A DNA stretch of 64,000 bases from the NCBI GenBank assembly GCA_020633995.1, contig JACKCO010000004.1, forward strand, positions 310,243 through 374,242, written 5' to 3'. A program made the translations under genes and the position numbers. The notes under the pieces were generated by a model, which was given only the letters and a program-made list of their open reading frames with translations, ran no database searches and had not been told where the DNA came from. Shown one piece after another: positions 19,952 to 60,656 of this stretch. How positions within the stretch are numbered: the first letter of the stretch is position 1; each line of letters starts with the position of its first letter. This DNA comes from Campylobacterota bacterium (GTDB lineage: Bacteria; Babelota; Babeliae; Babelales; RVW-14).

Positions 19952-20001
19952 TGTCTCTTCCAGAGGTGCTACTTTTTTTATCATGGGCAAAAACTACCGG
20001 C

Positions 20002-20095
20002 GTCATCCTCTGACCTGTCCTCTTGCTTGACAAGGGGATTGACCAGAGGATCTAGATCTCCGACCCCCACTTTCGTGAGGGCTGCCGGGGATGAC
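20002..20095. repeat. Two adjacent hairpin modules (one nested; one GAAA-loop type, minus orientation)
   Basis: gtcatcctctg[acctgtcctcttgcttgacaaggggattgac]cagaggatc (20002-20052), then gatctccgacccccactttcgtgagggctgccggggatgac (20055-20095). Confidence 0.85.
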
Positions 20096-20699: not shown

Positions 20700-21235
20700 T
20701 GGTGGGAGCGCTAGGTTTGCATGGATCCCGGCTCGTATCCCCTTGTCAAGCACGAGGACAGGCTTGGGATGACGACAAGGGGTTGTAATGCTGTACAACA
20801 AACGGTGTCTTCCTGCACCATGTGCTCTGCTGACGTCATCCTGAATTTATTTCATTGTTAACTCAAATCCAACAAAAAAGGTGTCATCCTCGAGTCCCAT
20901 CGAGGATCTCGTTTAAAGTGCTTTTTATTGATCAGTAGCAACGATTAGTAATGAAAATAAGATTCCCGATCGGTGTCGGGAATGACGCCTATTCAATCGC
21001 ATATGATTTGACAAGTAGCACCTTGATCAGAGTATCGTTTCAGCATCTAGCTAAGTAAGAGAGAAAAGATCCTGAAATAAATTCAGGATGACGTGAGGTA
21101 TAGCCCATGCCAACACTCCCCCTTGTCCGATACCGATCAGGGCATCCTGAACTTATTTTCCTCCTAACTAAATTTCTTAATATACGATTTTTTCCTACAA
21201 AGCCTGCAATAACTGTAGCCTTGTACATGCTGTTA
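20700..21235. repeat. Intergenic cluster of hairpin repeat modules
   Basis: Examples: 20723-20776 (nested), 20883-20908 gtcatcctcgagtcccatcgaggatc, 20961-20988 gattcccgatcggtgtcgggaatgac, 21069-21092 gatcctgaaataaattcaggatgacg. Confidence 0.85.
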
Positions 21236-22873: not shown

Positions 22874-22948
22874 ATTATAACGGAGATTCTGAAGCGATAT
22901 TTTGATTGCGTTAGAGAGATCCTGAAACGATACTCTGATCAAGTCAGA

Positions 22949-23314
22949 GCACATGGTTCAGCATGGCGTCGAGAAGAGTGCGTGATTCAGGATGACGTCG
23001 GTCGGGGAGTGTGTAGTTAAGGATGACGTCAGGAGTGCAACTTTTCCGTCGGGAACGACAAATTTTTTGTATGCCAATTCTCCAAGCAAGGTGTTCTTAA
23101 AAAAAGAAATGTTACTCTGAAATAGAGAGACGTTGCCTTAAACTCGGTAGAAGCATTCTGCATTTGGTAGATGCACCCTGAGTCGAGAAGACGTCACCCT
23201 GGGGGTGAGAGGTGTCACTCTCAGTTGAGGGGGGCATTCTGAGTCGAGAGAACAACGTACCTTGAACTCGGTAGACGTCACCCTGAATTTATTTCAGGGT
23301 CTTCTTGATAAAGA
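22949..23314 (+). repeat. Long direct repeat R1 flanking the GIY-YIG pair (31-nt tandem units plus a ~20-nt degenerate array plus a hairpin)
   Basis: Near-identical to 24335..24712. It ends in gtcaccctgaatttatttcagggtc (23277-23301). Confidence 0.85.
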
Positions 23315-23338
23315 TTGTTAGTCGAGGATCATCTGACT

Positions 23339-23623
23339 ATGGCTTTTTATGTTTATATTATGGCAAACAAACCACGTGGGACTTTGTACATAGGAGTTAC
23401 CAATAATTTATCACGTAGAGTTTGGCAGCATAAGCAAAAGACCCTAGATGGTTTTTCAAAGAAATATAATCTGACACGTCTTGTCTGGGCTGAAAAAATT
23501 GAATATGGCCAGCAGGCTATCGCTCGTGAAAAGCAATTAAAACGTTGGCATCGTGAGTGGAAAGTTAATTTGATTGAGTCTTTAAACCCAGAGTGGGATG
23601 ATTTGTACTCCACGTTAGTGTAG
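23339..23623 (+). CDS. GIY-YIG (URI-domain, COG2827-type) nuclease, copy 1
   Basis: MAFYVYIMANKPRGTLYIGVTNNLSRRVWQHKQ..REKQLKRWHREWKVNLIE shows the GIY-YIG core with conserved R and E. ATG at 23339, gagga 10 nt upstream. Confidence 0.85.
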   Translation: MAFYVYIMANKPRGTLYIGVTNNLSRRVWQHKQKTLDGFSKKYNLTRLVWAEKIEYGQQAIAREKQLKRWHREWKVNLIESLNPEWDDLYSTLV

Positions 23624-23747
23624 ATCCTGAAACGATACTCTGATGAAAATAGAGATCCTGAAACGAGTTCAGGATGACGTCTTTTCGTTCAGGATGACGT
23701 CATGTAAGGATAGGTGAATGTTGCGTTCTTCTGTGTGGAGGAGATTT

Positions 23748-23912
23748 TTACTCTGAATCTGGTGGTAGATGCACCCTGAGTCGAGAAGACGTCACCCTGG
23801 GGTGAGAAGGTGTCACTCTCAGTTGAGGGGGGCGCTCTGAGTCGAGAGAACAACGTACCTTGAACTCGGTAGACGTCACCCTGAACTTGTTTCAGGGTCT
23901 TCTTGATAAAGA
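23748..23912 (+). repeat. Middle copy (R2) of the ~20-nt degenerate repeat array plus hairpin
   Basis: Same unit series as 23140-23314. It ends in gtcaccctgaacttgtttcagggtc and the shared leader sequence. Confidence 0.8.
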
Positions 23913-23936
23913 TTGTTGGTCGAGGATCATCTGACT

Positions 23937-24230
23937 ATGGCTTTTTATGTTTATATTATGGCAAACAAACCACGTGGGACTTTGTATATTGGTGTTACAA
24001 GTAACCTTGCTCAAAGAGTTTTGCAGCACAAACAAAAAAAGGTGTCTGGCTTTACGCAAAAATATAATCTTTCTCAGCTTGTGTGGGTGAAAGTTAGTCT
24101 TTCTATGCAAGAGGCAATTACGCTTGAGAAACGCTTGAAGAAGTGGAACCGAAGCTGGAAAATGGAGCTCGTAGAATCAACGAATCCCAACTGGCAAGAT
24201 CTATCTCATGTGTTATTTAACATTGATTAA
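23937..24230 (+). CDS. GIY-YIG (URI-domain) nuclease, copy 2
   Basis: MAFYVYIMANKPRGTLYIGVTSNLAQRVLQHKQ..LEKRLKKWNRSWKMELVE. The first 50 nt are identical to copy 1, then it diverges. Confidence 0.85.
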   Translation: MAFYVYIMANKPRGTLYIGVTSNLAQRVLQHKQKKVSGFTQKYNLSQLVWVKVSLSMQEAITLEKRLKKWNRSWKMELVESTNPNWQDLSHVLFNID

Positions 24231-24236
24231 AATCTA

Positions 24237-24271
24237 GATCCCCGATGGGACTCGGGGATGACCCCTTTTTT
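24237..24271 (+). terminator. Hairpin module acting as a likely terminator of GIY-YIG copy 2
   Basis: gatccccga-tgggac-tcggggat, then gacccc plus T6 (24266-24271), 7 nt after the stop. Confidence 0.5.
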
Positions 24272-24334
24272 ATTGGATTTAACTTTACAGCAACACTCTG
24301 GACAGTTGTAAAACAAGTTCAGGATGACGTCAGG

Positions 24335-24712
24335 GCACATGGTTCAGCATGGCGTCGAGAAGAGTGCGTGATTCAGGATGACGTCGGTCGGGGAGTGTGT
24401 GGTTCAGGATGACGTCGGTCGGGGAGTGTGTGGTTCAGGATGACGTCGAGGGGCGCAACTTTTCCGTCGGGAACGACAAATTTTTTGTATGCCAATTCTC
24501 CAAGCAAGGTTGTTCTTAAAAAAAGAAATGTTACTTTGAAATAGAGAGACGTTGCCTTAAACTCGGTAGAAGCATTCTGCATTTGGTAGATGTACCCTGA
24601 GTCGAGAAGACGTCACCCTGGGGGTGAGAAGGTGTCACTCTCAGTTGAGGGGGGCATTCTGAGTCGAGAGAACGTACTCTGAACGAAAAGACGTCACCCT
24701 GAATTTATTTCA
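24335..24712 (+). repeat. Long direct repeat R3 (gene-less copy of R1)
   Basis: Collinear with 22949..23314 apart from one extra 31-nt unit. It ends in gtcaccctgaatttatttca. Confidence 0.85.
24372..24456 (+). repeat. 31-nt tandem repeat, about 2.7 units
   Basis: ttcaggatgacgtcggtcggggagtgtgtgg starts at 24372, 24403 and 24434 (partial). The R1 equivalent at 22986-23038 has one unit fewer. Confidence 0.85.
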
Positions 24713-26329: not shown

Positions 26330-26670
26330 AATAATAATCCTCCATAATGAAGATAAACCTACATTTACGTTTGCGCATGATCACATTAACTAACGCAGTT
26401 AAGGTGCAAGGTGAGGCTAGATAGTTTATAAAATACTACGCTTGATTACCGAGCTCCTGTAACAGCGACGTATTTTGCACCTCTAGACTGAGACCTCTCA
26501 TGTGCTATTTGCAATAGTAAATCAATAAAAAAATAGAGTCAAACGCACTTAGTAATTTTTTATTGATATTGCGCAATTTTTTTAAGAGATTTGCCAAACA
26601 AAAAAAAGTATATATACTCAATCGCACCATTGGTTCGATGTTTTATCGTTTTGCATGCAAAGGACGGGCT

Positions 26671-27570
26671 ATGCAAAAAAAATATGATCACCATCGTACA
26701 TCTCAAATTCAAACTGTAATTACATTTCTAATCGTAATTAATTCTCTGTGTTATACCAGTTTTATTATGAGTCAGGTGCAAGCTGGCCACGCGGAGTACG
26801 TGTGTCAAAAGTGTGGGTTTCAACAAAAAAAAGAGCTTGATAGTAGAGCGGCTCATACAGAGCACGTTGCGCAGCATCGTGCAGAGCAACAAAAAACAGA
26901 AAGCCCCAAGCAGCATTATGCCTATTTTCAGTCATTGCTGAGCCCTCGAGTGTGTAAAAAGTATGATCCACTGCACCCATTGGTCAGGCAGGTGCTTAAC
27001 CTGAGTTGTGCTGGCAGTGTGGCCGGGGGGCTGAGTTATGGTAGCTGTATGCTGCTTCGCGTTGCGGCCCGTTACTACTTGGATCAGCCTACAGGAAGCG
27101 TTAATCGCGATGCTGGCTTGCGCCAAGAGTTGGGCGACGAGCTTGCCCGCTGTCTTGACCAATGGGATGGTACGTCTGGCAGCGATACACCACGAACTCG
27201 ATCTGGTAGCAGGCCGGAGCGTGCAAAGCGGCAAGCACAGCTGCGCATGAAAAAAATGAACGATTTAATCGCCCTTGCAGGCGTACTGGTGTGGGTGGCT
27301 GGCACCGTGGGGATTATGTTTTGGCTCAATCGCAAAGGTGAGCCGCAACGGGAGAGCGCTGTGCAGGTGCTTGAGCGGCTTATGGACCAGTGGCTGCTGC
27401 ATCGCCCCTTTGTGCCCGAGCAGTTTGTGCAGCGATGTGACCAGCTGCATACAGCCTACCAGACGGGCAATGGGTGTTTGCAGCTGAGTGAAGATGAGGC
27501 TGAGGCGTTGGTTAAACAGATGGTGATGGTGTGTTTGGAGGCAGAGGCCGATTTTGCTACTAAATGCTAA
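26671..27570 (+). CDS. Hypothetical membrane protein (GC-richer than its surroundings)
   Basis: Start chosen at MQKKYDHH (26671). It has hydrophobic segments (TVITFLIVINSLCYTSFI and LIALAGVLVWVAGTVGIMFWL). Its 3' part is duplicated at 30179..30430. Confidence 0.55.
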   Translation: MQKKYDHHRTSQIQTVITFLIVINSLCYTSFIMSQVQAGHAEYVCQKCGFQQKKELDSRAAHTEHVAQHRAEQQKTESPKQHYAYFQSLLSPRVCKKYDPLHPLVRQVLNLSCAGSVAGGLSYGSCMLLRVAARYYLDQPTGSVNRDAGLRQELGDELARCLDQWDGTSGSDTPRTRSGSRPERAKRQAQLRMKKMNDLIALAGVLVWVAGTVGIMFWLNRKGEPQRESAVQVLERLMDQWLLHRPFVPEQFVQRCDQLHTAYQTGNGCLQLSEDEAEALVKQMVMVCLEAEADFATKC

Positions 27571-27653
27571 GTTAACTTTACATATAGTTCTGCTAGAAGC
27601 AAAATGTGCGCAATGCACGGATGAAAAATGCTTACTGATCGGCAAAAATACTG

Positions 27654-29469: not shown

Positions 29470-30178
29470 TGCCGTTATCTGTACCCACATTAGTATTACC
29501 ATGGATACCGGCTCGTGGGCCGGTATGACGAGTTGGTAGGGCCAGCATGACAAGTACTTGGAGATGATTTCCCTTAATGAAAATAAGATTACCGATCGAA
29601 GTATTGTACGTCGATACAAAGGACTATGCAATATAATCAGATCCTGAAACAAATTCAGGATGACGTCATGAGTATAAAATAACGTCATCCTGAACCATGT
29701 GCTCTGACTTGATCAGAGTATTGTTTCAGGATCCATAACTAGTCATTCCACCCCAAGGGGAAAACAATGGACCCTGGATCGGAGTCACTACTGTCCAAAG
29801 TGTTTTGAAATAATCTTTTTTGAAGGTGCATGCTATTACCCCTTAGGTCGCCCCCGGCTTGGTCGGGGGTCCAGATAATGGTTAATCAAGTTCTGGATTC
29901 CCGCCGAGCCTGCCCTCTGACTTGATCAGGGGGTCACTGCAACCCACGAGCCATTACTGTGCGTGATTTTCATATAAATTGTAGCACTACTACTTGTGGG
30001 TCAAGTTTGCGATACCTCAACTCGTCGCTCCGGGCTTGATCCGGAGTCCATAGGTCAAATCTACGCTTTACTTCCGTGCTCGTGTGGATACCGGCTCGTG
30101 GGCCGGTATGACGAAGTGCGGTATATATTTATTGATCTTGGCCCCGAAGCCTGGAGGGAGTCATCCCCGACTTCGATA
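29470..30178. repeat. Dense hairpin repeat cluster including a truncated MITE-like copy
   Basis: 29503-29532 ggataccggctcgtgggccggtatgacgag. 29640-29667 and 29682-29733 are inverted tgaa-type modules, the second one nested. 29790-29915 is homologous to 60366-60485. Confidence 0.85.
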
Positions 30179-30430
30179 GCTTGCCCGCAGTCTTGGCCAA
30201 TGGGATGGTACGTCTGGCAGCGATACACCACGAACTCGATCTGGTAGCATGCCGGAGCGTGCAAAGCGGCAAGCACAGCTGCATACAGCCTACCAGACGG
30301 GCAATGGGTGTTTGCAGCTGAGTGAAGATGAGGCTGAGGCGTTGGTTAAACAGATGGTGATGGTGTGTTTGGAGGCAGAGGCCGATTTTACTACTAAATG
30401 CTAAGTTGACTTTACATATAGTTCTACTAT
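30179..30430 (+). pseudogene. Duplicated, internally deleted 3' fragment of gene 26671..27570
   Basis: Matches 27141-27244 joined directly to 27449-27596. The 204-nt in-frame deletion is bounded by cagctgc microhomology. An in-frame TAG lies just upstream, and the only ATG in frame is at 30250. Confidence 0.8.
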
Positions 30431-30464: not shown

Positions 30465-31634
30465 GTGAGTATGATTATTAATAGAAATTTTTGGCAGGCG
30501 TTAATAGAAAGATCCTGGAAAGAGCGGAGTGTTATTTGGTTAATGGGTGTTAGACGGGTTGGTAAGACAAGCTTATGCCAGAGTCTTGATAACATTGAGT
30601 ACTTTGATTGTGAGAGCCCTAGGGTTAGGCAGATGCTGGTAGATCCTGAAAGTTTTCTTGAGGGGCAAGAAAATACACGGGTTGTACTCGATGAAATTCA
30701 TCGTCTTGATAATCCCTCAGAGGTTTTAAAGCTCGCTGCGGATCACTATCCCACCGTTAAAATTATTGCGACAGGCTCATCAACGCTGGGTGCTAGTGCA
30801 AAATTTAAAGACACGCTAACGGGTCGAAAGATTGAAATTTGGCTTTCGCCTATGCTTTTTCAAGATCTTGCTTTGTTTGGTAACACTGATTTGAATCACC
30901 GTTTTCTATTTGGTGGGTTACCCTCTTTTTTTACAGCAAAACAAGTCCCTGAAAAGTATTTTCAGGAATGGATTGATGCTTACTGGGCAAAGGATATACA
31001 AGATATATTCAGTATTGGTAAACGCTTTGCATTTCAAAAGTTTGCCGAGCTATTGCTGGCAAATAGCGGGGGGCTTTTTGAGGCAACTCGATATACGGCA
31101 CCTTGTGAGGTGAGCAGGGCGACCATCTCTAATTATCTGAATGTTTTGGAAGAAACGTTTGTTGTGCATGTGTTACGGCCTTTTTCAACGCATAAGCCGA
31201 CCGAGATTGTTATGGCTCCAAAGGTGTATGGGTTTGATACCGGCTTTGTATGTTATGCGCAAGGTAAAACAGCGTTAAGAGCAGAAGATGTAGGCTTTAT
31301 GTGGGAGCATTGTGTCTTGAATGAAATGCTTGGTCGACTTCAAATGCGGACGGTTCATTATTGGCGTAATAAAAGTGGGCATGAGATTGACTTTGTTATT
31401 CAACATCGAAAAAATAAGTCGATTACTGCCATAGAGTGCAAATTTCTTATTAATCAAGATGCGATTGCTCTTAAAGCACTGATTAAAAATTTTACAAGTT
31501 TCAGGCGTCACTATCCAATAGGAGAAAATATTGTTGTGGCTAGCAATATTGAAAAGATGTTTAAAAGAAAAATTGATGATATTACCATTACGTTTCTAGC
31601 GCCTGACGATCTTATCGACTTACTGGATCAATGA
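30465..31634 (+). CDS. AAA ATPase (COG1373-like, AAA_14 plus DUF4143 architecture) with a nuclease-like C-terminus
   Basis: 389 aa. Walker A GVRRVGKTS, Walker B VVLDEIH. C-terminal GHEIDFVI..ITAIECKF (D..ExK-like). Confidence 0.75.
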   Translation: MSMIINRNFWQALIERSWKERSVIWLMGVRRVGKTSLCQSLDNIEYFDCESPRVRQMLVDPESFLEGQENTRVVLDEIHRLDNPSEVLKLAADHYPTVKIIATGSSTLGASAKFKDTLTGRKIEIWLSPMLFQDLALFGNTDLNHRFLFGGLPSFFTAKQVPEKYFQEWIDAYWAKDIQDIFSIGKRFAFQKFAELLLANSGGLFEATRYTAPCEVSRATISNYLNVLEETFVVHVLRPFSTHKPTEIVMAPKVYGFDTGFVCYAQGKTALRAEDVGFMWEHCVLNEMLGRLQMRTVHYWRNKSGHEIDFVIQHRKNKSITAIECKFLINQDAIALKALIKNFTSFRRHYPIGENIVVASNIEKMFKRKIDDITITFLAPDDLIDLLDQ

Positions 31635-31639
31635 GGTGT

Positions 31640-31960
31640 ATTATTACTGAGCATATTTATTGATCTTGGCCCCGAAGCCTGGAGGGAGTCATCCCCGAGC
31701 CTGCTCTCTTGCCTGCCTTGGGGGCATCCCCGACTTCGAGCCTGCCTTCTTGCTTGACAAGAGGGTCATCCCCAATTCCACACGCTTGTCATCCTCGGAC
31801 TTGATCTACACGCTCGTCACCCTGGACTCCGATCCAGGGTCCATTTTTGAAGATCACATCTAAAACCTAGGTGAGCATTCTCATGGATACCGGCTCGTGG
31901 GCCGGTATGACGAAGTGCGGTGTATATTCATGGATGCCGGGTCCTCCCCCCCCGACAGGC
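31640..31960. repeat. Hairpin repeat cluster
   Basis: 31650-31700 is homologous to 30128-30175. 31812-31845 gtcaccctggactccgatccagggtcc. 31885-31915 ggataccggctcgtgggccggtatgacgaag. Confidence 0.85.
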
Positions 31961-32480: not shown

Positions 32481-35400
32481 CTATGCGATGACTTGTAATT
32501 GTGTGCCAATTTTTTCAAGGTACATTCCTCTCTTCTTTTCATTAGTACCTGCTGTTGGAAACTTTTCTTTTATTTTTTTGCCCAAATCATCTATTTTTTT
32601 TCCAATGTCTGCTGCATTTCCATTATTAAGGATAACATAATGATCTTTGATTGCTTCATCGAAATCAGTTTTTTTGTTATAGATATCATCTTTATTTTTA
32701 CCTATAGCAGTATTGAATTTCTCACATATTTCTTTCCCAAGATCATCTAGAGTAGCATTATTGGCAGCGTCAACATCAAAGGCGGTAATGTCAAGGGACA
32801 GAGCAATATTATTAATTTGGGTTAAAGTACCTACGGGGTCTGCTTTGAACACAAGCACGGTGTTAGTAGCGCCGCCGCCGCCGCCTCCGCCGCCGCCACC
32901 AGCGCCACCAGCGCCTCCGCCTCCGCCAGCGCCGCCTCCGCCGCCGCCGCCTCCGCCGCCAGCGCCTTTAGCAGGTAGAGTTCCAACTGCTGCAATGGCT
33001 GCATCGATGCCGCCTAAGTCAAGGCCAAGGATGGTATTGATAGCTGTTGCCTTAGCTTTGGTTATAGCAGTGTTAAGTGCCTCAATGTCTGTTTTGTCAA
33101 AATCTGCATCGGCTGCTCCAGGATTTGCTTTATTTGCAGTAAACCAGTCACTTAGGCTAGTAGCACCATCACTGGCTGTTTTGTTGGCAGCATTGATCAC
33201 ATCGTTAAACGCATTGAGTGCTGCACTAAGTGAACCATCACTAAATGGTGGGGCCTGTAGTGCATTGGTTATTGGTTGAAGTGCTGGATTAAGTCCTGAA
33301 AGATCTTTGTTGCCTAACTCTGTAATGAGTGCTGTAACTTTGCCACCAAGTGCTGCAGGATCATTGTTCAACAGATTAAGTGCTTGTCGTTGTTTTATAG
33401 CGTCTGCTCCTAAGATTGCTTGCGCATCTGCGCTTACAGCCAAGTCTTTCAGTGCAGTGTGTACTGCAGTTCTTGTCTTAGCTAGTTTAGCTATTTTTGC
33501 TTTGGCGTTTGCTACCAATTTGTCTGCAACGGTTTTGGCAAAGGTTTGCTTTGTTGGATCAACTGCTGCATTCAGTCCGTTAAAGCCTGTTATGCTTGCG
33601 TAATGGGCAAGTGCTATATTTGCATCAGCTGCCTTGCCATAGACGTCAGTAATAATTTCTGCTTTTTGTGTATCGATGTAGTTTTCATACGCTGTTTTGC
33701 TTGTTGGGACAGCGGCAATGCTGGTATCATATTCTGTTTTTACCTCAGCATTGGTACCAGCTTTGACTGCTGCTAGTTTGGTATCAAAGTTTTTGATGAT
33801 ATCTGTGTGACCATTGCCATCGATGAGTGACTTTTCGATGTGTGCGTTCATAATGTTTTTGAGAATGTCTTCGGTAGCTGCTGCGTCTGCACTGTCTTTG
33901 ATTGCTTGTATGAACGCTGCGTTTGGATAAATATCATGGCCAGCGATATCAGTGTCATCTGCAGGATTTTTGTAAAATCCGTATAGTGCTTCAATTGCGG
34001 CATGTTGTGTTGCTACAGAAGCGTTTTTGCAATTAGCTTCGGTTGGATTTTTGCTTACTTGTGCCAAGTCATGAAGTGCTTGAACAAGTGGATCGGTTAA
34101 GCGTGCGCTTAAGTCGCTGTAAGCAGGCAGTGCGTTAGTGACAATGTTAGCGTCGTCTTGGTGATGCCATGACATGGCGCTGAGTGCTTCTAAGATATTT
34201 TTTTGTGGATCAGAAGCTGTTCCAAGCCAGGCTCTAAATGTTGCAGTCATTGTCGCCCACCAACCTGAACCGGATGTGCCAAGTCTTTTATTGCTGATTT
34301 CAAACAAAATCGCATCACGTAAAGAGCTTGTTGGCGCGGTGTCACTAACGATGTCTTTTAAGCGCTTGACGACTTGTTTTGAAGTGTTGGCGTCTGCAAG
34401 ATTGAAAATGTTGTCATACAAGTTGTAGTTGTTGAAAAGCTGGCTTGTCCACTTAGCACGGTTTGGTGCACCTGCAATGGTGAGTGTATGGTAGTCTTCA
34501 GCGGCTTTTTGAACGGTATTGATATTCAGCTTCAAGATATTGTTTGTGAAGTAGGTAAAAACTTCTTGTTTAGATTTACCCATGACATTTGGGTTTGTAC
34601 CACTTAAGTCAACTTTAGCTCCTACCACCCCTGGTGTTGGGTAATTGTACAGCAGGCTGTCAAGGGTTTTTGTCATGGCAGGGCTTTTTGCTGCTTCAAA
34701 TGTTGTTCCTGGAGCGTCGTAGGCATCTGCCAACGCGAAGTGCTTGTGGTGTTGGTGCTCCATGAGTTTATCAACAATGGTTTCAAGAGAGTTTTTGACT
34801 GTTGCTGCTTCAAACTTATTTGCCGCGAATGCACCTTCAAAATTACCTAGTTTGCCAGTATTAGCAGTGCGGGCGTCCTTGACTTTTTTAAAAGCGAGGA
34901 GAAGGTCGAGGTGTTTTTTAGTGGTTGGTTCGTCTGTTGCCGCTGCAACTGGCCCAGGAGCAAGTGGTATTGCTTGGTTAACAAAAGTAGTGAGTAGACT
35001 TGCAGGAGCTGCGTTATTCGCTATGTTAGTAACGCAACTGATTGCGTCATCATTTGCCAGAACTTCTAGCATGTTGTTTGCTTCACCTGCTAGACCATGG
35101 GTTCCAGACGCATGAATATTTTTTATATCAGCATGATGTGCTTTAACAATTTTGACGAGTGCTGATGCGTCAGCATCGGCTTTGAAGGTTGCAGCAACGT
35201 GGAAAGGGCTTTTGTTAAATTCATGCAGGACGTCGTTGTTTATAGCTTCAGCAGCAACCTCTCTCAACGCAGCTAGTGTTGCATCTTTGACTGCGGCAGC
35301 ATCTGTCTCATCTGGTGCAGCGGCTATAATTTTTCCAAAAATTTCATTAGCAAAACCCTTGGTGTCTTTCATTAATTCTGTAATATCTGTATGAGCGGCT

Positions 35401-36224
35401 TTTAGTGCATCATCAGCGCCAGCCTTGAAAAATTTCTTAGATTCTTTCTGGTCAGCTGTTGTTAGATCAGCTTTGATTGCAGTCCACAATGCATCTTTTG
35501 CTGCAGCGCCTGTTGGTGCTGGTGGAGATGCGATTGGTGCGAGCTTGGTAGCAATTTGGGCTACCAGTGGTGCAGCTCCGGTAACACTGCTTACGTTTGG
35601 ATTGATAGATGAAATGAGTTTAGGGTTAGTGTGCGCGAGGAATTTAGTTGCGTCGGCTGATTTTTGTGTATCGCGTCGTACGCCATCACTTTTGAATGAG
35701 TCAGGTGCGAGTAATTTTTTTGAAAGCCTTTCCAGCGCTTGTTGAAACTGAGTGTATGCTGTTAACACTTTTTGAGCATCTGCTTGTGAGGGTGAGGTGT
35801 TAATGAAGTCATCCATTTCGCTGGCGATTGTATCGATACGAGCATTAATTTTACCTGCCCAGCTGTTTGAGTATGGATTTGCAGCTGTTGGCGTGAAATT
35901 AATACTCGTCAGTGGCAGGCCAGCACCACTAGCGCTCTTGTACTTTTTAATGATATTATTTTCGGCCGTTGCATCGTCGATGCCGGCAAGCATCCCATCG
36001 ATAGCGGTGACTGTATCGAGTAGTTCTGTTTCGATGTCATCCGCACCTTTTTTATCGATATCTGTTGCTGTTTTCTCAAGGCGTGCATCAGCGTCCTTGC
36101 ATAATTTGCTAATTATTCCAAAGTTCCACGCCGCGGCTAATGGACTGAATGAGCATAGACTGATGAGCAACGTCAGAAATGTTGCGATTGTCGCGTAGCG
36201 TGCTCTTACTCCTGTTTGCTTCAT
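32481..36224 (-). CDS. Giant Ala/Lys/Asp-rich secreted surface protein (1247 aa) with a poly-Gly tract
   Basis: Uninterrupted 3.7-kb ORF. Signal peptide ..ATFLTLLISLCSFSPLAAA. No domain that I recognise. Confidence 0.8.
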   Translation of the reverse strand: MKQTGVRARYATIATFLTLLISLCSFSPLAAAWNFGIISKLCKDADARLEKTATDIDKKGADDIETELLDTVTAIDGMLAGIDDATAENNIIKKYKSASGAGLPLTSINFTPTAANPYSNSWAGKINARIDTIASEMDDFINTSPSQADAQKVLTAYTQFQQALERLSKKLLAPDSFKSDGVRRDTQKSADATKFLAHTNPKLISSINPNVSSVTGAAPLVAQIATKLAPIASPPAPTGAAAKDALWTAIKADLTTADQKESKKFFKAGADDALKAAHTDITELMKDTKGFANEIFGKIIAAAPDETDAAAVKDATLAALREVAAEAINNDVLHEFNKSPFHVAATFKADADASALVKIVKAHHADIKNIHASGTHGLAGEANNMLEVLANDDAISCVTNIANNAAPASLLTTFVNQAIPLAPGPVAAATDEPTTKKHLDLLLAFKKVKDARTANTGKLGNFEGAFAANKFEAATVKNSLETIVDKLMEHQHHKHFALADAYDAPGTTFEAAKSPAMTKTLDSLLYNYPTPGVVGAKVDLSGTNPNVMGKSKQEVFTYFTNNILKLNINTVQKAAEDYHTLTIAGAPNRAKWTSQLFNNYNLYDNIFNLADANTSKQVVKRLKDIVSDTAPTSSLRDAILFEISNKRLGTSGSGWWATMTATFRAWLGTASDPQKNILEALSAMSWHHQDDANIVTNALPAYSDLSARLTDPLVQALHDLAQVSKNPTEANCKNASVATQHAAIEALYGFYKNPADDTDIAGHDIYPNAAFIQAIKDSADAAATEDILKNIMNAHIEKSLIDGNGHTDIIKNFDTKLAAVKAGTNAEVKTEYDTSIAAVPTSKTAYENYIDTQKAEIITDVYGKAADANIALAHYASITGFNGLNAAVDPTKQTFAKTVADKLVANAKAKIAKLAKTRTAVHTALKDLAVSADAQAILGADAIKQRQALNLLNNDPAALGGKVTALITELGNKDLSGLNPALQPITNALQAPPFSDGSLSAALNAFNDVINAANKTASDGATSLSDWFTANKANPGAADADFDKTDIEALNTAITKAKATAINTILGLDLGGIDAAIAAVGTLPAKGAGGGGGGGGGGAGGGGGAGGAGGGGGGGGGGATNTVLVFKADPVGTLTQINNIALSLDITAFDVDAANNATLDDLGKEICEKFNTAIGKNKDDIYNKKTDFDEAIKDHYVILNNGNAADIGKKIDDLGKKIKEKFPTAGTNEKKRGMYLEKIGTQLQVIA
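32871..32966 (-). repeat. Imperfect (GGN)n trinucleotide tract encoding about 32 Gly/Ala residues
   Basis: gccgccgccgccgcctccgccgccgccaccagcgcc... on the plus strand. The protein reads GAGGGGGGGGGGAGGGGGAGGAGGGGGGGGGGA. Confidence 0.9.
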
Positions 36225-36405: not shown

Positions 36406-38061
36406 TTAAAATGCAAAGCCCATTTTGCCCCAAACGGTGTAGCGCTCAAGGTCAGCATTTGATGAGGCAAATTCATATGACGCACCAATGGCAACACTTG
36501 AATGGAGGCCGCACATGCTGAACACATAACCCAGCGAGCCACCAAGGGTGTGGGTGAACAGAGCCGGTGTTCTGGCTGCTTCAACATCCAGGACATCACG
36601 GTTGATCATCAGTTCTACAGCGTCTTCTTCTAATGGGTTGATTGTTAGAAAACCTGGAATAGCTTTAGGCAGGGCATACTTGTCATCTTCCCAGTGCTTG
36701 AGCCAAACAGACTCTTTGTCTTTCCAGAACATATTGTAACCAGCATCAACCACAAAACCTCCTGAACAAAATGAAAGTGATGCAAGCGCGTCAAACAAGC
36801 TGCCTGGTTTTACACGCAGGTCGGTGGTTAGCACATTAGCAGCTGGAAAGAGTGGAGTGCCTGCTGGTGCATTAAGCTTGCCGATAGCAAAATAATGGCT
36901 GAATGGCATGCATTTGAGTGACAGGGTACGAGTTTCAGTTTTTTCAGCTAAGTAGCGGTAGTTAGCAACTAAGTGACCATCTACGCGGCCATTTTTGTTG
37001 TGCCATAGGCGGCCACTAACCTCAACGTTGGCATTAAAGCTGATGTGGCGACCGTTACCATAAATTGGCTCAAACAGATATTCGCCACGTACTTTGTTAC
37101 CTGTTGGCGCGGTGATACCAGCGCTGATAAAGACGTGTGCATTTTCTTTATGCACAACTTTGTAGCCCAGCATGAGGTCTATGTCGGCAACACCCAGCGC
37201 GCTGCGGCGGCAATCAATTTTTGCATGAGTGAGCGGGCAGAGCATTTCTCTGTTTTCAGGATCTCCAGAGGCATCAAGAGCTGGGTCGACATTGCGTACA
37301 CGGCCAGCAAAAAAGTCATGAGCACTCCACTCGTTGAGTGGTAGCTGTGTGAATTTTGCTTTTTGTTCTGGTAGGTCGCAACTGTCATCACATGGGCAGT
37401 CAGTGTCAACTGGGCAGGCTGGTGTTGGGCACGCTACCGGACATGGGTCGCAGCTGTCGGTTTTGCATGCGCCTTTTACATTCTTGCCGGTGCGAGCACG
37501 CATACTGGTGGCAACGTGCACGAGCGGCATGCTCATTTTAAAATAGAGCCCGGTAAATGGATGCATAATGTCTTGCATCAAATCAAGACGAACACCGTAG
37601 CTTTCGTGTTGTGGTTTCCAGGTGAGTGTTGTGCGAAGTTCTTGGCTCGTTGGTGCAAAGGGGTTGGTTGGTATAATGCGACGATCGTCAATTTCAGCAC
37701 CTTCTGCTGGGGTAATAGTAGCTGCTGCACCATCGGGATCTACGATAGTTCTCGTGTTGTCAAAGCGAATGCTGTTTGTTTTTTTGCAGCGATCGATGTT
37801 GCATTTTTCAATGCCAAAATATCCTCCCGTTTCACGGGTATTTTGTGATTGCTTGTAAAATGGTGTGATTTGAAATTTGGTGTGATGCGAATCTTTTTTA
37901 TGCGTGTGTTTGTGCCACGTGAAGTATTCAGTCATGAGGTCATTGATGTCGGGGCGCGTTGCCATGTATGTTTTGCCGGTATGGTCATCGCTGCCTGCAA
38001 AAAGTGTGCCCGCACACATAACTGCAACCAAAAGCGCATGTACAAAAGATCTATGCGTCAT
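36406..38061 (-). CDS. Outer-membrane beta-barrel protein (MOMP-like), paralog 1, with a Cys/Pro/Asp-rich insert
   Basis: 551 aa. Signal peptide. C-terminal ..WGKMGFAF (terminal Phe). Alternating beta-strand pattern. Paralogous to 40708..42414. Confidence 0.75.
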   Translation of the reverse strand: MTHRSFVHALLVAVMCAGTLFAGSDDHTGKTYMATRPDINDLMTEYFTWHKHTHKKDSHHTKFQITPFYKQSQNTRETGGYFGIEKCNIDRCKKTNSIRFDNTRTIVDPDGAAATITPAEGAEIDDRRIIPTNPFAPTSQELRTTLTWKPQHESYGVRLDLMQDIMHPFTGLYFKMSMPLVHVATSMRARTGKNVKGACKTDSCDPCPVACPTPACPVDTDCPCDDSCDLPEQKAKFTQLPLNEWSAHDFFAGRVRNVDPALDASGDPENREMLCPLTHAKIDCRRSALGVADIDLMLGYKVVHKENAHVFISAGITAPTGNKVRGEYLFEPIYGNGRHISFNANVEVSGRLWHNKNGRVDGHLVANYRYLAEKTETRTLSLKCMPFSHYFAIGKLNAPAGTPLFPAANVLTTDLRVKPGSLFDALASLSFCSGGFVVDAGYNMFWKDKESVWLKHWEDDKYALPKAIPGFLTINPLEEDAVELMINRDVLDVEAARTPALFTHTLGGSLGYVFSMCGLHSSVAIGASYEFASSNADLERYTVWGKMGFAF

Positions 38062-38329
38062 TGTCTTTCTCCTTTTCCCATCTACAAGGTCTTAAACCTT
38101 TACCTTTCTCTTCTACACATGATCAGCAGGGCATGTTTGTCGATGGGTGCATCATGTTAAAACAAACCACGCCGCACGCTGTTTCTTGTTTTGAGTTAAG
38201 CGTAGACCACAACAGGGAAAAGAATCAAGAATTTTGTCACATGTTTTTAATTTTTTTTAGAAGCGTTATGGTTGCGGTATTTTGCGGGGTTTGGTTTTGT
38301 TTTTTTGGATGTGTTTTTATGAGTTATGA

Positions 38330-39008
38330 GATTTTCGACCCCCACTTTCGTGAGGGCTGTCGGGGATGATCCCCTGATCAAGTCAGAGGATATGCAAATC
38401 TACCTCGTCACCCTGGACTCCGATCCAGGGTCCATTTCTAAAGAATAAACGCATCGTACATAACATATGAGTGTCACAATGGATACCGGCTCGTATCCCC
38501 TTGTCAAGCAAGAGGACAGGGCCCGGTATGACGAGTGCGAGAGGCTATAATTTTTTTGAGTCATCTCGGCCTTGTTGTTAACTCAAGAAACAACAAAAAA
38601 GGAGTCATCCCCGAGTCCCATCGGGGATCTAGATTTTAATCAATGTTAAATAACACATGAGATAGATCTTGCCAGTTGGGATTCGTTGATTCTATGAGCT
38701 CCATTTTCCAGCTTCGGTTCCACTTCTTCAAGCGTTTCTCAGATACTGATAGTGTAACAAAAAATAATGGTGTAACAATTAAACAAGATCCCCGATGGGA
38801 CTCGGGGATGACCCCTTTTTTATTGGATTTAACTTTACAACAATACTTTAATTAGGGTGACGACATCTTGAATCAGGGTGATGACATCTGTTATTGCTGC
38901 GTGGCGAAAATATCTCTCGGAGAATTAAAGAATTGCAACCGACAAGATTGCACACAATAAAAAAGTTGTCATTCCCGACAGCCCTCACGAAAGTGGGGGT
39001 CGAAAATC
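38330..39008. mobile_element. ~680-bp segment bounded by 40-bp inverted repeats, containing a GIY-YIG gene remnant and hairpin modules
   Basis: 38330-38369 is the reverse complement of 38969-39008 with 1 mismatch in 40 (hand-checked). Confidence 0.45.
38603..38741 (-). pseudogene. Remnant of a GIY-YIG nuclease gene (3' ~105 nt) with its downstream hairpin
   Basis: Reverse complement of 24125-24262 (tgagaaacgcttgaagaagtggaaccgaagctggaaaatggagctc..cattgattaaaatctagatccccgatgggactcggggatgac) with few changes. Confidence 0.8.
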
Positions 39009-39080
39009 TAAAAAATTGAAACAGGTACAAAGAAATGAGGTCCCCAATAGATCCCCTGAATCCAGAAATTTGTAACTTCC

Positions 39081-40214: not shown

Positions 40215-40640
40215 GGACCTAATCCTGCTTAGCATACCATGCGCATGAGGCGAATCTGAAGAGTTTGATAAAAAAGGCAGGTTCTGGATCCCGCCTATGC
40301 GGGAACGGTTCCCTGGGCAAGCCAGAGGACAGGCTTGGTGATGAGCCACTACTGTACAAAGCGCTGTTTGTAAAATCATATGCAATTGAGTAGGAGTCAT
40401 TCCCGACGCCGATCGGGAATCTGGGTAAAAGAGAGCTACTGGTTTGTAGCATGTTTGTGTTTGTAAAATTTTATATGAAGGGCAGGTTCTGGATTCCCGC
40501 CTACGCGGGAACGACGAGTGTTGGGTTGTTAGGCAGATACAAGATCAAGATGGCTGCTCTTGGAAAGTTAGGCTACAAAAAACTACGTCTTCCCCGACTT
40601 GATCGGGGATCCAGAACTTGAAGTATTCCTTTCAAGAAAA
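40215..40640. repeat. Hairpin repeat cluster
   Basis: 40281-40310 and 40487-40518 gttctggattcccgcctacgcgggaacgac. 40396-40421 gtcattcccgacgccgatcgggaatc. 40587-40612 cgtcttccccgacttgatcggggatcc. Confidence 0.85.
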
Positions 40641-40707: not shown

Positions 40708-42414
40708 TTAAAATGATACGCCAACTTTACCCCAGATACCCCAGTTGTCGTAGTTGCTGTTGCTTGAAGCCCATTCATACTGACCACCAAGACCCATCAT
40801 CAATGGATATTCCCATTCATGGAAGAAGTAACCAAGGCCACCGTAGATTTTGTTGCTAAACTGTGATGGTGTTTCTGCTACGCGTGTGTTGACGTTGCTT
40901 GAAGTAAGTTCAAGTGGTGTGCCGTCAGATTTTCTTTCTGCTTGGTTGTCTTTGCTGAAGCCGTTTGTTTGATCGATTTCAGCATTACGAGCGACCAAGT
41001 GCCAACCTTTAGGGAATCCGTCGCAACCGCATTTGAGTTTGACTGACTCTTGTTCACGGTAGTAGAGTGTGTAACCAAAGTCAAATACAAAACCGCAGTT
41101 GGTGTATGACAAGCCAAAGAGTGCGTTCACTTGGCTGCCAGGGGTTACATCAACGCCAAGGCAGGTTGACACGTTAGCAAATGGTGTTAAGCATTTGTCA
41201 CCATCTTTTGCAACAAGGTACCATGGGCTGCATGGGCGGCCAGGGCACTCAATGCCAAGCGCACGGTTTTCACAGCTTTCAAACAGGTAGCGATATTTAA
41301 CCGCGATATCAAGTTTGAGGTTGTGCTTGTGATCATCGCCCCATAGTTTGAACCATGATTTGAAATCAAAACCAACACCAAAGTGGTTACCGTTACCTTG
41401 TACGCTTTCAAACAACCATCTGCCATCTGGGTCGTTACCCGTTGGGATGGTGATTGCAAACGCAAGGGCTGCACGGTAGTCATCTTTGTAGAGGAAGTGA
41501 TAGCCAAGGCCTAAGTCGATGTCTGAAACGCCGGTTTCATCATCTGGACCTTTGCAACCGCAACGGTCGATGCGCAGTTTGCAGAGTTCTTTTTGGCAGT
41601 TTGTGTCAGCAGTACCAACTTTGTTGTCTACTTTTGCACCGCTGTAGTAGTTTTCAAGTTGTTTTTTGAGTGTTTCGTCGTCACTCTGTACAAACATGTT
41701 CATTTTATGTTCAACATGTTCAATAGTCATGTTGCCATAAAAGTACAAGCCTTTAAGGAGTTTATCCAAACTTTGGTAGTAGTCAAAGCGTGCACCATAA
41801 CGTTCTGCGTCTGGGTTTGTGCAAATTTTTGCTGTTTTATCATTAGTAGTTGAGAGTTGCTTGTTGTGATCGTGAACGATGTAGCGCCAGTCAACCGTGT
41901 CAACAGCTGATTTTGCAGCTGGAGTTGACGCCGTTGTTCCGTCGCTGGTACCATCACGCTTAACTATAGAGCCAACATCTTCTGTTTTAAATTCACAGCA
42001 GGTGCCGCATTTTGTTTTGCAGCCGGTGTTGCATTTGCATGGGTCGCAGTTGCAAGTGCCACAGCAGCTTGGATCTCTGGTGATTTCACTTCTAGTGCAG
42101 CAGCTTGAGCAGGTGCCGCAGGTGCCTGTTGAGCAGCTTGTGTCACATTTGGTGTCACATGCTTTTCCACAGCAGCTGAAGTATGTGCCGAGTTCACTGC
42201 TTGATGATGAGTCCATCCAAAATGGAACTACTTGAAAATTCGCGCCAAATTTATCTTCGGCGTGTCTGTCAATCATGCGTGCGAACGTGGTGTATTCCAT
42301 GGCCAAGTTGACATTACTTGGACGTGGCATTAAGAAGGTTTTATTGTTATGAGCGAAAACCGATGCTGAGCTAACGGTCAGCAATGCGGCTAAGAGGGCT
42401 TTTATTTTATTCAT
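40708..42414 (-). CDS. Outer-membrane beta-barrel protein (MOMP-like), paralog 2, with a ~65-aa Cys-rich insert
   Basis: ATG at 42414 gives MNKIKALLAALLTVSSASVFA. C-terminal ..WGKVGVSF. Both termini align with 36406..38061. Confidence 0.75.
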   Translation of the reverse strand: MNKIKALLAALLTVSSASVFAHNNKTFLMPRPSNVNLAMEYTTFARMIDRHAEDKFGANFQVVPFWMDSSSSSELGTYFSCCGKACDTKCDTSCSTGTCGTCSSCCTRSEITRDPSCCGTCNCDPCKCNTGCKTKCGTCCEFKTEDVGSIVKRDGTSDGTTASTPAAKSAVDTVDWRYIVHDHNKQLSTTNDKTAKICTNPDAERYGARFDYYQSLDKLLKGLYFYGNMTIEHVEHKMNMFVQSDDETLKKQLENYYSGAKVDNKVGTADTNCQKELCKLRIDRCGCKGPDDETGVSDIDLGLGYHFLYKDDYRAALAFAITIPTGNDPDGRWLFESVQGNGNHFGVGFDFKSWFKLWGDDHKHNLKLDIAVKYRYLFESCENRALGIECPGRPCSPWYLVAKDGDKCLTPFANVSTCLGVDVTPGSQVNALFGLSYTNCGFVFDFGYTLYYREQESVKLKCGCDGFPKGWHLVARNAEIDQTNGFSKDNQAERKSDGTPLELTSSNVNTRVAETPSQFSNKIYGGLGYFFHEWEYPLMMGLGGQYEWASSNSNYDNWGIWGKVGVSF

Positions 42415-42888
42415 TCGTATACCCCACAAATTATAACGTTTAACTTGTGACCTTAAAGTACCATGCACTAAAATTTTTTATACAATTTTAATTGCTTGCA
42501 AAAATAATCATGAAAATATTTGTATCGTTTTCTGCACGACCTCCTTTCCACTCAAAATGTATTCGGCACACATTGACCCTACCTAATTTACAAGGAGCTC
42601 GTTGACTTGATCAATGCGTCACCATCGCGTACATTTTCCACACTGCTTGACTTAATGAGACCAGTCAAGCGTAACGAATGTTGTTCAAGATATCAAGTCT
42701 TTTTTGTCCTCGCGTTTTTCACTTCACACTACGTTTTGAAAATTATACAAATCTCTGTAAAGTTAAATTTATATAAAAAGGTTGGACGGATGCAATACTT
42801 TTTACACAAAATTTTTTTTTGCATAAAAAAACGACGGAAAAGTAAGAAAACTTTTTTTGTTTAAAAGATTGACTGAAAGCGGGACGGT

Positions 42889-53606: not shown

Positions 53607-53624
53607 ATTTTGAATAGTCATCGA

Positions 53625-54225
53625 GCGAGCCTACCCTCTTGCTTGCTCAGGGGGCATCCGGGTTTCTTCTCGTCATCCTCTGGCTTGACCAGGGGGATAA
53701 CGATTCATGAGCAGCGTCTACAACTGTCCAAAGTGTTGAGAAAGCCTGCTGAGAAGATAGGTGGCTACGACTGACAAGTTTGCTTGCGAAAAAAAAATCG
53801 TCGTCCCCGGCTTGGTCGGGGATCTAAAAAATTAAAAGTGAAATAAATGATGTAAGGGTTGTATGATTCTTACAAAGGAGATCCCCGATCGGCGTCGGGG
53901 ATGACCCCCAGAAAAAAACGTCTATAAAAAAATATCGCATTCAAACGTAAAGTAACACTTTGGACAGTAATGGATCGGAGTCCAGGGTGACGAGATTGAA
54001 TGCTATGTTATAAGTACAAGTTGCTGCATGACGTTTCAAAGTTATGGGGAGCGTATAGCTCCCCCTCTGTTTTTTAGTGCCATGCAATGTAATACTCGTC
54101 ATCATCAAGTCCGGAGCCACGAGCCTGCCCTCTTGCGTGATCAGGGGAGTCACCCGGACCGAACACGCGTCATCAAGCTTGTCCTCTGGCTTGACCAGGG
54201 GAGCCCACGAGCCGTGATCCATTCT
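53625..54225. repeat. Hairpin repeat cluster containing a MITE-like unit (53723..53968)
   Basis: actgtccaaagtgtt (53723-53737) and its inverse aacactttggacagt (53954-53968) flank gtcgtccccggcttggtcggggatc. Also 53672-53698 and 54131-54215 cctctggcttgaccagggg-type modules. Confidence 0.8.
54046..54075 (+). terminator. Orphan intrinsic-terminator-like hairpin
   Basis: ggggagc-gtata-gctcccc followed by ctctgtttttt. It is about 440 nt from the trpS stop, so the transcript it would end is unknown. Confidence 0.35.
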
Positions 54226-60169: not shown

Positions 60170-60224
60170 AATTATCGTAAGGTCCTGTGTGTAGGTATGG
60201 TATTTGGGTGGCGTATGTTATTTT

Positions 60225-60595: not shown

Positions 60596-60656
60596 AAGCA
60601 AATTTTGTACGGGTAGCTATCTTAGTCTGAGTGAGAGCATATAAATTTATTAATTT

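Follow-up and report, generated by a model that had tools for sequence, protein, structure and literature searches.

What are the hairpins within hairpins that recur in a 64-kb stretch of a metagenome-assembled genome (MAG; contig JACKCO010000004.1), and how did one palindrome come to lie in the loop of another? The window, as this whole 64-kb stretch is called here and which is the part of the genome that was covered, carries a short palindromic module in three identical copies and, at 38481-38534, a further copy whose loop holds a second, foreign hairpin. The modules are Ssn-related motifs (SRM, NTS-like), a known family described in 2025 by Chenal et al. The original prediction, made from the letters of the window, had treated them as unnamed elements and overlooked a described family whose cognate nuclease is apparently encoded in the same window. 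In the reading preferred here, to which we give a probability of about 60 per cent, the nested forms are SRMs whose apical loop received another hairpin unit; with the extra DNA in the loop the motifs would stay recognisable, and the composites would persist and be copied as units.

Nested copies of a known hairpin repeat

Published SRMs are single hairpins of 20-50 nt, and the family includes the Neisseria NTS CGTCATTCCCGCGMAVGCGGGAATCYRG (Chenal et al., Nat Commun 2025; PMC11893778). Their nuclease SsnA, a single-domain GIY-YIG protein of 94 aa, binds the hairpin as single-stranded DNA (ssDNA) only, on one strand only, and is inactive on RNA; it requires the 3 nt preceding the palindrome and the C after it, and it cuts a few nucleotides upstream of the hairpin (PMC11893778). 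Loop identity is dispensable for SsnA, and removal or extension of the loop is tolerated in vitro (PMC11893778).

Whatever their stem, the copies in the window share a common frame: GTC, a stem of 7-9 bp mostly beginning with AT, a loop, the complementary stem and a C. This GTC...C frame, with varied complementary stems, occurs in 26 simple and at least eight nested copies. A structural scan of the window (GTC, a 7-nt arm, a loop, the complementary arm and C, with shuffled sequences as control) returned 19 short-loop copies against a shuffle mean of 0.17 (maximum 1); for loops of 11-80 nt it returned eight, where shuffles averaged 1.4 (maximum 5). Seven copies beyond these scan matches carry a GTCGT or GTCTT prefix. 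Two copies lie within one and two mismatches of the NTS consensus (60466-60493 and 40489-40516, with 0 expected), and the others match it in frame only. The simple module GGATACCGGCTCGTGGGCCGGTATGACGA, predicted to be intact at 29503, 30086 and 31885, has exactly those three exact copies, none being expected from 100 shuffles. The simple copies that matter here are the following.

29504-29529, minus strand: simple ('empty') ACCGGC module GTCATACCGGCCCACGAGCCGGTATC
30087-30112 and 31886-31911, both minus strand: identical copies of the simple ACCGGC module
60466-60493, minus strand: SRM identical at 27 of 28 positions to the Neisseria NTS consensus, CGTCGTTCCCGCGAAGGCGGGAATCCAG
40489-40516, minus strand: SRM identical at 26 of 28 positions to the same consensus
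40586-40614, plus strand: SRM CGTCTTCCCCGACTTGATCGGGGATCCAG

Beyond the window, a scan of one genome per species with the pattern GTCATCCCCGA..TCGGGGATC found at least 120 loci in many phyla, including candidate phyla radiation (CPR) bacteria, Omnitrophota, Elusimicrobia, Bacteroidales, Nitrospirota, Geobacter and Coxiellaceae; among the matches listed, CTTGA and CCTGA are found as loops, and a convergent partner ...CTGGATTCCCGC..GCGGGAATGAC often accompanies the hairpin. An organelle or cyanobacterial repeat family was also considered and was dropped: the window is bacterial chromosome dense in genes, and it has neither a tRNA nor an Rfam match.

Three types of inner hairpin were recognised in the loops of these motifs. 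Type A, the commonest insert, is a hairpin of about 25 nt (CCTGYCCTCTNNCTTGANNAGGGG). CTTGA, the canonical SRM loop, tops its stem of 7-9 bp, a T-G mismatch on the GTC strand is constant, and the three distal stem pairs co-vary (TGA/TCA, TGG/CCA, TTG/CAA). Type B, CCATGTGCTCTGACTTGATCAGAGTATYGT, lies within the ATCCTGAA-armed SRMs at 29684 and 22918, and type C, CAGCCCTCACGAAAGTGGGGGT, within the SRM-like hairpins at 20055-20095, 38324-38369 and 38969-39014. There are about 13 cores of types A and B in the window. Type A sits in perfect outer SRMs at 20002, 38482 and 60231, where the same inner hairpin is held by different stems (ATCCTCTG, ATACCGG and ATCCCCGA), and in decayed outer SRMs at 20723 and 54169; elsewhere it is free-standing with a GTCAT prefix at 53672, and the remainder lie in mosaic arrays beside single arms. 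The individual features are listed below.

38482-38532, minus strand: nested module of the original prediction, GTC-ATACCGG...CCGGTAT-C, with a type A hairpin (38496-38520) in the loop
20002-20052, plus strand: nested module, outer arms ATCCTCTG/CAGAGGAT, type A in the loop
60231-60280, plus strand: nested module, outer arms ATCCCCGA/TCGGGGAT, type A in the loop
29684-29733, plus strand: nested module, outer arms ATCCTGAA/TTCAGGAT, type B inner hairpin CCATGTGCTCTGACTTGATCAGAGTATTGT
22918-22996, minus strand: nested module, outer arms ATCCTGAA/TTCAGGAT, its 61-nt loop an extra half-arm plus a type B hairpin
20723-20776, minus strand: decayed copy of the 38482 composite, outer stem about 5 bp, insert with one mismatch
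54169-54219, plus strand: imperfect composite, GTCAT-CAAG-[type A]-AG-CCCACGAGCCGTGATCC, with the loop and right arm of the ACCGG module kept and the left arm replaced
60344-60582, minus strand: SRM-type base enclosing 220 nt, GTC-ATTCCCGA...TCGGGAAT-C, with 34-bp extended inverted ends and a convergent SRM doublet inside
20055-20095, minus strand: SRM-type hairpin with type C inside, arms ATCCCCG/CGGAGAT with one mismatch, convergent with 20002-20052 and 2 nt from it
53672-53698, plus strand: free-standing type A with the full GTCAT prefix, GTCATCCTCTGGCTTGACCAGGGGGAT
29897-29935, plus strand: type A interrupting the loop of an SRM in reverse orientation (GGATTCCCGC-C|GAGCCTGCCC...); homology to the empty paralogue 60466-60493 stops within the loop

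Most of what the original prediction described was found in place. The arms of the simple module do surround a foreign hairpin at 38481-38534 (ggataccggctcgt[atccccttgtcaagcaagaggacag]ggcccggtatgacgag), although the insert measures 25 nt and not 23, and the nested cases at 20002-20052, 29684-29733 and 60231-60280 are each present as described. The hairpin with about 200 bp in its loop at 60344-60582 was likewise confirmed, its interior being 220 nt and its inverted ends extending to 34 bp. At 20723-20776 the same insert is indeed present with one mismatch, but the supposed 'different outer stem' turned out to be a decayed stem, ATCCCaaG / CCGGGAT. The cases at 22918-22996 (minus strand) and 54169-54219 (plus strand, imperfect) and the third inner hairpin type at its three sites had not been predicted.

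Folded as ssDNA, the module at 38481-38534 is predicted to form a two-tier hairpin (-10.4 kcal/mol, z = -2.3), and z-scores for the other nested modules were -3.7 (20001-20053), -4.3 (29683-29734), -2.1 (22917-22997) and -1.4 (60230-60281), with -7.7 kcal/mol and z = -3.6 for the simple module at 29504-29529. The decayed copy at 20723-20776 is predicted not to fold as a two-tier hairpin (z = 0.04). The stretch 60170-60441, which includes the nested module 60231-60280, is 100 per cent identical to short-read contigs from two sequencing runs (L123, L124), so the nesting is not an artefact of MAG assembly.

Nesting could also be gauged by asking how often an inner core lies inside an inverted repeat of at least 8 bp. 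Five of the 13 type A and B cores in the window and 14 of the 21 in metagenome loci are enclosed in this sense, compared with 4-5 per cent of random windows; the latter were used as the control since a flank-swap control for enclosure is inflated by repeated copies of one composite.

Searching metagenomes for type A gave 20 contigs, drawn from several samples and with 39-57 per cent GC, in which the hairpin lies mostly inside SRMs whose arms differ by locus (ATTGCCCGA, ATTCTCCGA, ATTCCCTGG, ATCCTCCGA, ATCATCCGG, ATTGCCGGA and others). As these matches were ascertained through the inner sequence, its apparent conservation is biased; the variety of the outer arms is free of this bias. At least three loci carry the ATTGCCCGA composite, an ssn homologue lies among such repeats in L138, and several loci consist of three concentric inverted repeats, as in ATCATCCGG > CTCCCCGAT > type A. 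A plasmid database searched with a composite gave no match. The genome loci were sampled through the outer hairpin only; long-loop SRMs are common among them, and many of these hold unrelated inner palindromes. Hairpins starting with YTGTCC occur four times in the loops of the long-loop SRMs against 0.7 expected, and un-ascertained YTGTCC cases in the metagenome loci number five against 0.14 expected. This enrichment, together with the long-loop SRMs elsewhere, argues that nesting is general to the repeat family and not a quirk of one genome. Two metagenome loci, L132 and L140, are orthologous (96.5 per cent identical over 604 nt) and both hold a three-tier composite; their similarity ends right after the composite, and the repeat thus marks a rearrangement breakpoint.

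Ssn-like genes, cassettes and mosaic arrays

Judged by domain content and setting, the cognate nuclease of these modules is encoded in the window itself, as two putative Ssn-like proteins and the remnant of a third. The genes and the repeats nearest to the remnant are as follows.

23339-23623, plus strand: ssn-like gene 1, 94 aa, single-domain GIY-YIG (Pfam E = 3.8e-15), NCBI "GIY-YIG nuclease family protein" MCB9493515.1
23937-24230, plus strand: ssn-like gene 2, 97 aa, Pfam GIY-YIG E = 2.1e-16, 63 per cent identical to gene 1
38639-38740, minus strand: ssn-like 3'-end remnant, 34 codons, 97 per cent identical to the gene at 23937-24230 (tblastn)
38604-38629, plus strand: simple SRM GTCATCCCCGAgtcccaTCGGGGATC, left half of the inverted pair around the ssn remnant
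38787-38812, minus strand: simple SRM, right half of that pair
38324-38369, minus strand: left 46-nt inverted-repeat arm of a unit of about 690 bp, an SRM-like hairpin with type C inside
38969-39014, plus strand: right 46-nt arm of that unit, 93 per cent complementary to 38324-38369, with type C inside

Each intact gene lies between convergent SRMs, at 23277-23301 (plus) and 23654-23678 (minus) for gene 1 and at 23875-23899 (plus) and 24237-24262 (minus) for gene 2. In length and domain content the two proteins fit the Ssn family (CDD cd10448, GIY-YIG_unchar_3), whose members have a single domain and about 94-100 aa. The Pfam domain PF01541 spans residues 3-77 of the proteins; NCBIfam models gave weak, sub-threshold matches only, and a sequence search of the PDB with the ssn-like protein returned no relative. 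Homologues of 48-56 per cent identity lie directly beside SRMs at four loci of other organisms (L016, L076, L109 and L138; tblastn).

The remnant stands about 100 bp from the nested module of the original prediction, between its inverted SRM pair. Both belong to a unit of about 690 bp (38324-39014) that ends in 46-nt inverted repeats, 93 per cent complementary, and that contains the nested module and the second inverted SRM pair (38591-38635 / 38781-38825) around the remnant; it looks like a decayed ssn cassette within another repeat-bounded unit. The intact cassette at 23165-24673 is tandemly duplicated (23165-23464 against 23763-24062, 88 per cent identical), and a third copy of its upstream region (24511-24673) is geneless, the homology of the SRM that precedes the gene stopping just past the loop (about 24703).

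Several mosaic structures accompany these genes. Tandem single SRM arms, each consisting of GTCAT, an arm, a few loop bases and a spacer, stand upstream of one complete hairpin at 24330-24450, at 31688-31800 and in the loci L082, L110, L114 and L120; such single-arm arrays suggest repeated breakage or template switching at the hairpin. The first of these arrays has the following form.

24330-24450, minus strand: array of half-SRMs (single arm), period 31 nt

Resembling miniature inverted-repeat transposable elements (MITEs), a mosaic family at 29755-30030, 53690-54000, 60330-60600 and 40270-40640 has the ends ...ACTGTCCAAAGTG / CACTTTGGACAGT... and a convergent SRM doublet inside, and its ends abut an SRM arm and loop at 29770, 53960 and 60344/60582. 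A type B hairpin at 20812-21047 is seemingly split between CTCTG and CTTGA by a mosaic of about 195 nt that holds the SRMs 20883 and 20961, which may represent a third level of nesting. Between 27140-27595 and 30178-30429, repeats of 105 and 154 nt (97-98 per cent identity) are shared; they join the 3' part of the open reading frame (ORF) 26563-27570 to the region upstream of an AAA_14/DUF4143 gene (30465-31634), and each begins beside a GTCATCCCCGA half-arm.

The densest repeat clusters adjoin two cysteine-rich, beta-barrel-like paralogues (36406-38061 and 40708-42468, both minus strand) and a 1247-aa protein with a poly-glycine tract (32481-36224, minus strand), an arrangement that recalls the clustering of NTS at Neisseria surface-protein genes; none of these three proteins has a Pfam match. 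The source MAG is labelled Campylobacterota / Epsilonproteobacteria at NCBI, a label that may be unreliable, and the best homologues of a YbaK-like protein are only 56 per cent identical, some of them being labelled Candidatus Babeliales. The nearest protein relatives of the MAG stand at about 50-56 per cent identity, and the protein collection holds no close relative.

Insertion, retention and loss

Comparison of loops with and without an insert favours the derivation of filled forms from empty ones, that is, insertion over deletion. An empty SRM in one metagenome contig (ATTCCCTGG-CTTGA-CCAGGGAAT, at L138:10954) has a counterpart with the same arms and the loop CTTG[25 nt]A in another (L131:5145), and a further filled copy in L135 reads CTCG[25 nt]A; CTTGA and CTCGA are, among the matches listed, the commonest SRM loops in unrelated phyla without type A. 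L127, L139 and L141 have the ATCATCCGG arms in empty form, L132 and L140 in filled, three-tier form. Within the window, the filled copy has GCC[25 nt]ACGAG where the simple module has the loop CCC^ACGAG, and the two type B copies leave different residual loops, TTGT and TCGT, which match two different simple copies, TTTGT and CTCGT. Inner and outer hairpins lie on the same strand in 12 arm classes and on opposite strands in two.

These patterns can be accommodated by a mechanism in which the apical loop of an SRM receives a further hairpin, usually the 25-nt type A, otherwise B or C, and in places a whole 200-bp mosaic. The loop would be the place where DNA enters or is tolerated, being unpaired in an extruded hairpin and irrelevant to recognition; since Ssn recognition rests on the base of the stem and its flanks, the loop would be the one position at which added DNA keeps the element recognisable. 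Composites may then persist, be copied as units, and receive or enter further hairpins, up to three tiers. The event probably takes place on ssDNA, to which the same-strand orientation in most arm classes points, and the guess of the original prediction that extruded or single-stranded DNA is involved agrees with the recognition of SRM-type hairpins by Ssn as ssDNA only (PMC11893778). The insert has its 5' end 2-4 nt before the inner GTC, which corresponds to the SsnA cut position relative to NTS. This hints that an Ssn cut a few nucleotides 5' of a donor hairpin may set the 5' end of the insert, with the ssDNA fragment released by Ssn as the donor, and that joining could be left to host replication or repair, for example template switching or hairpin-loop processing.

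It is possible, if rather doubtful, that type A and its YTGTCC relatives go further and constitute a gene-less mobile hairpin that moves as ssDNA, integrates specifically into the apical loop of Ssn-recognised hairpins with its 5' end set by the Ssn cut, and is then carried along with the host hairpin. Riding along in this way would explain the presence of type A in different outer stems and in unrelated bacteria.

Several observations count against loop filling as proposed. The published degenerate SRM string, HGTCWYN(0-2)YYVSBRHN(0-5)WNVSBRGN(0-2)RNCYNB, fits a single site in the window (40586-40614; shuffle mean 0.18), which is explained by its narrow allowed arm compositions and loop lengths: in most copies here the loop has 6-8 nt or the arms differ. 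In the inner hairpin GTCC stands in place of GTCAT, and no C directly follows its palindrome, so its recognition by Ssn is not assured. Eight of the 13 type A and B cores in the window have no good outer stem and lie in mosaic arrays beside half-arms. The boundaries of the insert vary, falling at N4^A in the metagenome copies and near the 5' edge of the loop in the window. The copies at 38482, 20723 and 60231 all share the junction GCC[core]ACGA; the common junction may trace to one event followed by spread or arm exchange, which would mean fewer independent events than copies. No orthologous pair of filled and empty alleles was found among metagenome contigs, nearest relatives or short-read contigs: the proteins of the nearest relatives are at most 56 per cent identical, the short-read contigs end inside repeats or match the window exactly, and the contigs of the best flanking-protein homologue (56 per cent identity) have neither synteny nor SRMs. 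No protein is recurrently encoded beside type A in the 20 metagenome loci. Finally, GIY-YIG nucleases form, to our knowledge, no covalent intermediate, so that there is no candidate enzyme for the joining step and host replication or repair must be invoked.

There is also the matter of what a filled loop records. The original prediction took hairpin loops to be the preferred integration site, and one inner hairpin in the loops of many stems, the empty counterparts and the loop residues that flank the insert all speak for this; however, only five of the 13 window cores are enclosed, and targeting is inseparable from retention: a 'preferred integration site' would look no different from the sole position at which an insertion keeps the hairpin functional and is hence retained and re-amplified.

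The main rival, which we consider unlikely, builds on the second of these possibilities and combines retention bias with mosaic recombination. SRM clusters would be hot spots of breakage and template switching, as in the intergenic mosaic elements of Neisseria; modules would be reshuffled at many positions, and a hairpin that landed between complementary arms would survive and be re-amplified as the SRM stays functional. Most type A and B copies in the window do lie in half-arm arrays (31688-31800, 53618-53700 and 54112-54220), single-arm arrays are found both here (24330-24450) and in the other phyla noted above (L082, L110, L114, L120), the homology of paralogous copies ends within or beside SRMs, and the short block CCCACGAGCC may precede type A, follow it or be split by it. 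Yet the orientation is biased 12:2, random shuffling would not be expected to produce precise loop junctions in so many arm classes, residual loop residues rebuild canonical loops, and 14 of 21 metagenome cores are enclosed against 4 per cent of random windows.

Loop filling could also be read backwards, and we regard this as improbable: the nested composites would be ancestral, and the simple modules would have lost their apical hairpin, for example by replication slippage. Deletion of hairpins by slippage is a known process. In the nested copy the core is flanked by just the sequences that make up the simple loop, CCC-ACGAG, and at 60231 GCC...ACGA flanks the core within a different outer stem. 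The original prediction had looked to a single deletion junction shared by the simple forms as the mark of this history; the three ACCGGC copies are identical and therefore have one junction trivially, while the canonical loops across arm classes favour insertion, and independent deletions would have to recreate such loops in each arm class. Short-loop SRMs (CTTGA, CCTGA, CTCGA) are moreover general across many phyla without type A and match the experimentally studied NTS (PMC11893778), and an intact CCCACGAGCC lies beside type A, not around it, at 54200 and 29945.

That the likeness among copies reflects function and not mobility, the hairpins being structures selected for a role in RNA or regulation (terminators, attenuators or sites for protein binding in transcripts, for example), appears very unlikely. 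All copies are intergenic, and T-runs follow some of them (60280 CTTTTTTATTTT; 38812-38825), but most copies have none, both orientations relative to neighbouring genes occur, the window has no Rfam match, SsnA is inactive on RNA (PMC11893778), and identical units with differing outer stems lie at unrelated loci and in unrelated organisms. Intrinsic terminators in particular, which call for a G+C-rich hairpin followed by a T-run, were rejected: few copies carry the run, and their orientation to genes is mixed. Chance or assembly error, which the origin of the sequence in a MAG might have suggested, is effectively refuted, as shuffles yield essentially none of these structures, two short-read assemblies are identical over one nested module, and 20 unrelated metagenome contigs have the same architecture.

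Known systems and significance

The likeness to SRM/NTS and Ssn is close. In both, an oriented hairpin has GTC upstream of its palindrome and C after it, many clustered copies are intergenic, a single-domain GIY-YIG gene of 94 aa has repeats on both sides, and convergent doublets ...GGGGATCCAG...CTGGATTCCCGC... are formed, as in many phyla. The text of PMC11893778 contains neither 'nested' nor 'inserted' and describes single hairpins only. The window differs from published SRMs in the conserved second hairpin (GTCC, not GTCAT) in the loop, with up to three tiers, in loops that are mostly 6-8 nt, and in stems that are far more varied within one genome.

Another member of the SRM family is the dRS3 core of Neisseria, ATTCCC-N8-GGGAAT, and short blocks bounded by dRS3 are known as Neisseria intergenic mosaic elements (NIMEs). 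Like the arrays described here, they are intergenic mosaics in which a small vocabulary of blocks is bounded by the same hairpin repeats near surface-protein genes, the neighbours in the window being the cysteine-rich, outer-membrane-like paralogues; unlike them, NIMEs place blocks between repeats and not hairpins within repeat loops. Small dispersed repeats (SDR) of 21-27 nt were reportedly described by Elhai et al. in 2008 in Nostoc and other cyanobacteria. According to PMC4390886, SDR5 sits between nucleotides 3 and 4 of HIP1. SDR resemble type A in looking mobile, in measuring about 25 nt and in occupying precise positions within other short conserved sequences. Their sequences, host lineage and host sites are different, and they have no known link to Ssn or SRM.

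Repetitive extragenic palindromes (REP), with their BIME and REPIN assemblies and the RAYT protein, share with these repeats short extragenic palindromes with an oriented 5' motif, inverted doublets, recognition of an ssDNA hairpin and a single-copy cognate gene flanked by repeats (PMC3116915, PMC3337134). RAYT is, however, an IS200/IS605-like Y1 enzyme, whereas here the fold is GIY-YIG with no covalent intermediate; no Pfam match to Y1_Tnp (IS200/IS605-like) occurs among the 36 window ORFs, and the repeat-flanked gene is GIY-YIG. Loop-nested copies are not a described feature of REPIN. Insertion sequences that target hairpins, such as IS110/IS1111 in REP and attC and IS200/IS605 at hairpin feet (PMC1525189, in part), likewise use extragenic hairpins as targets and single-stranded intermediates, but their inserts are at least 1 kb long and carry their own recombinase genes, whereas the insert here is 25 nt and has no gene, and no consistent target duplication of the MITE type flanks it. 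For the 220-nt interior of 60344-60582, a 6-nt duplication of the loop as target was considered and rejected, the two sides being inverted complements and not direct repeats.

The repeat family and its nuclease were thus already known. In concept, the SDR elements and the insertion of IS110 and IS1111 types into REP and attC hairpins come closest to the nesting. What appears to be new is the loop-nested architecture with up to three tiers, the conservation of an apical hairpin across contigs of differing GC and outer stems, and the evidence from filled and empty loops; no other description of loop nesting was found in the literature searched. With regard to propagation, the authors of the SRM study note only the insertion-sequence-like look of the repeat-gene-repeat layout (PMC11893778). 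Nested copies preserve traces of earlier events and give a concrete handle on propagation: it can be read from them that the hairpin takes up DNA in its loop, and for the most part on the same strand. That the composites stay propagatable agrees with the indifference of Ssn to the loop in vitro, and they offer natural substrates with 25-220 nt of loop cargo for Ssn, which has been proposed as a programmable ssDNA cutter. Should the 25-nt hairpin indeed move independently, it would rank with the smallest units of mobile DNA known and push their lower size limit further down.

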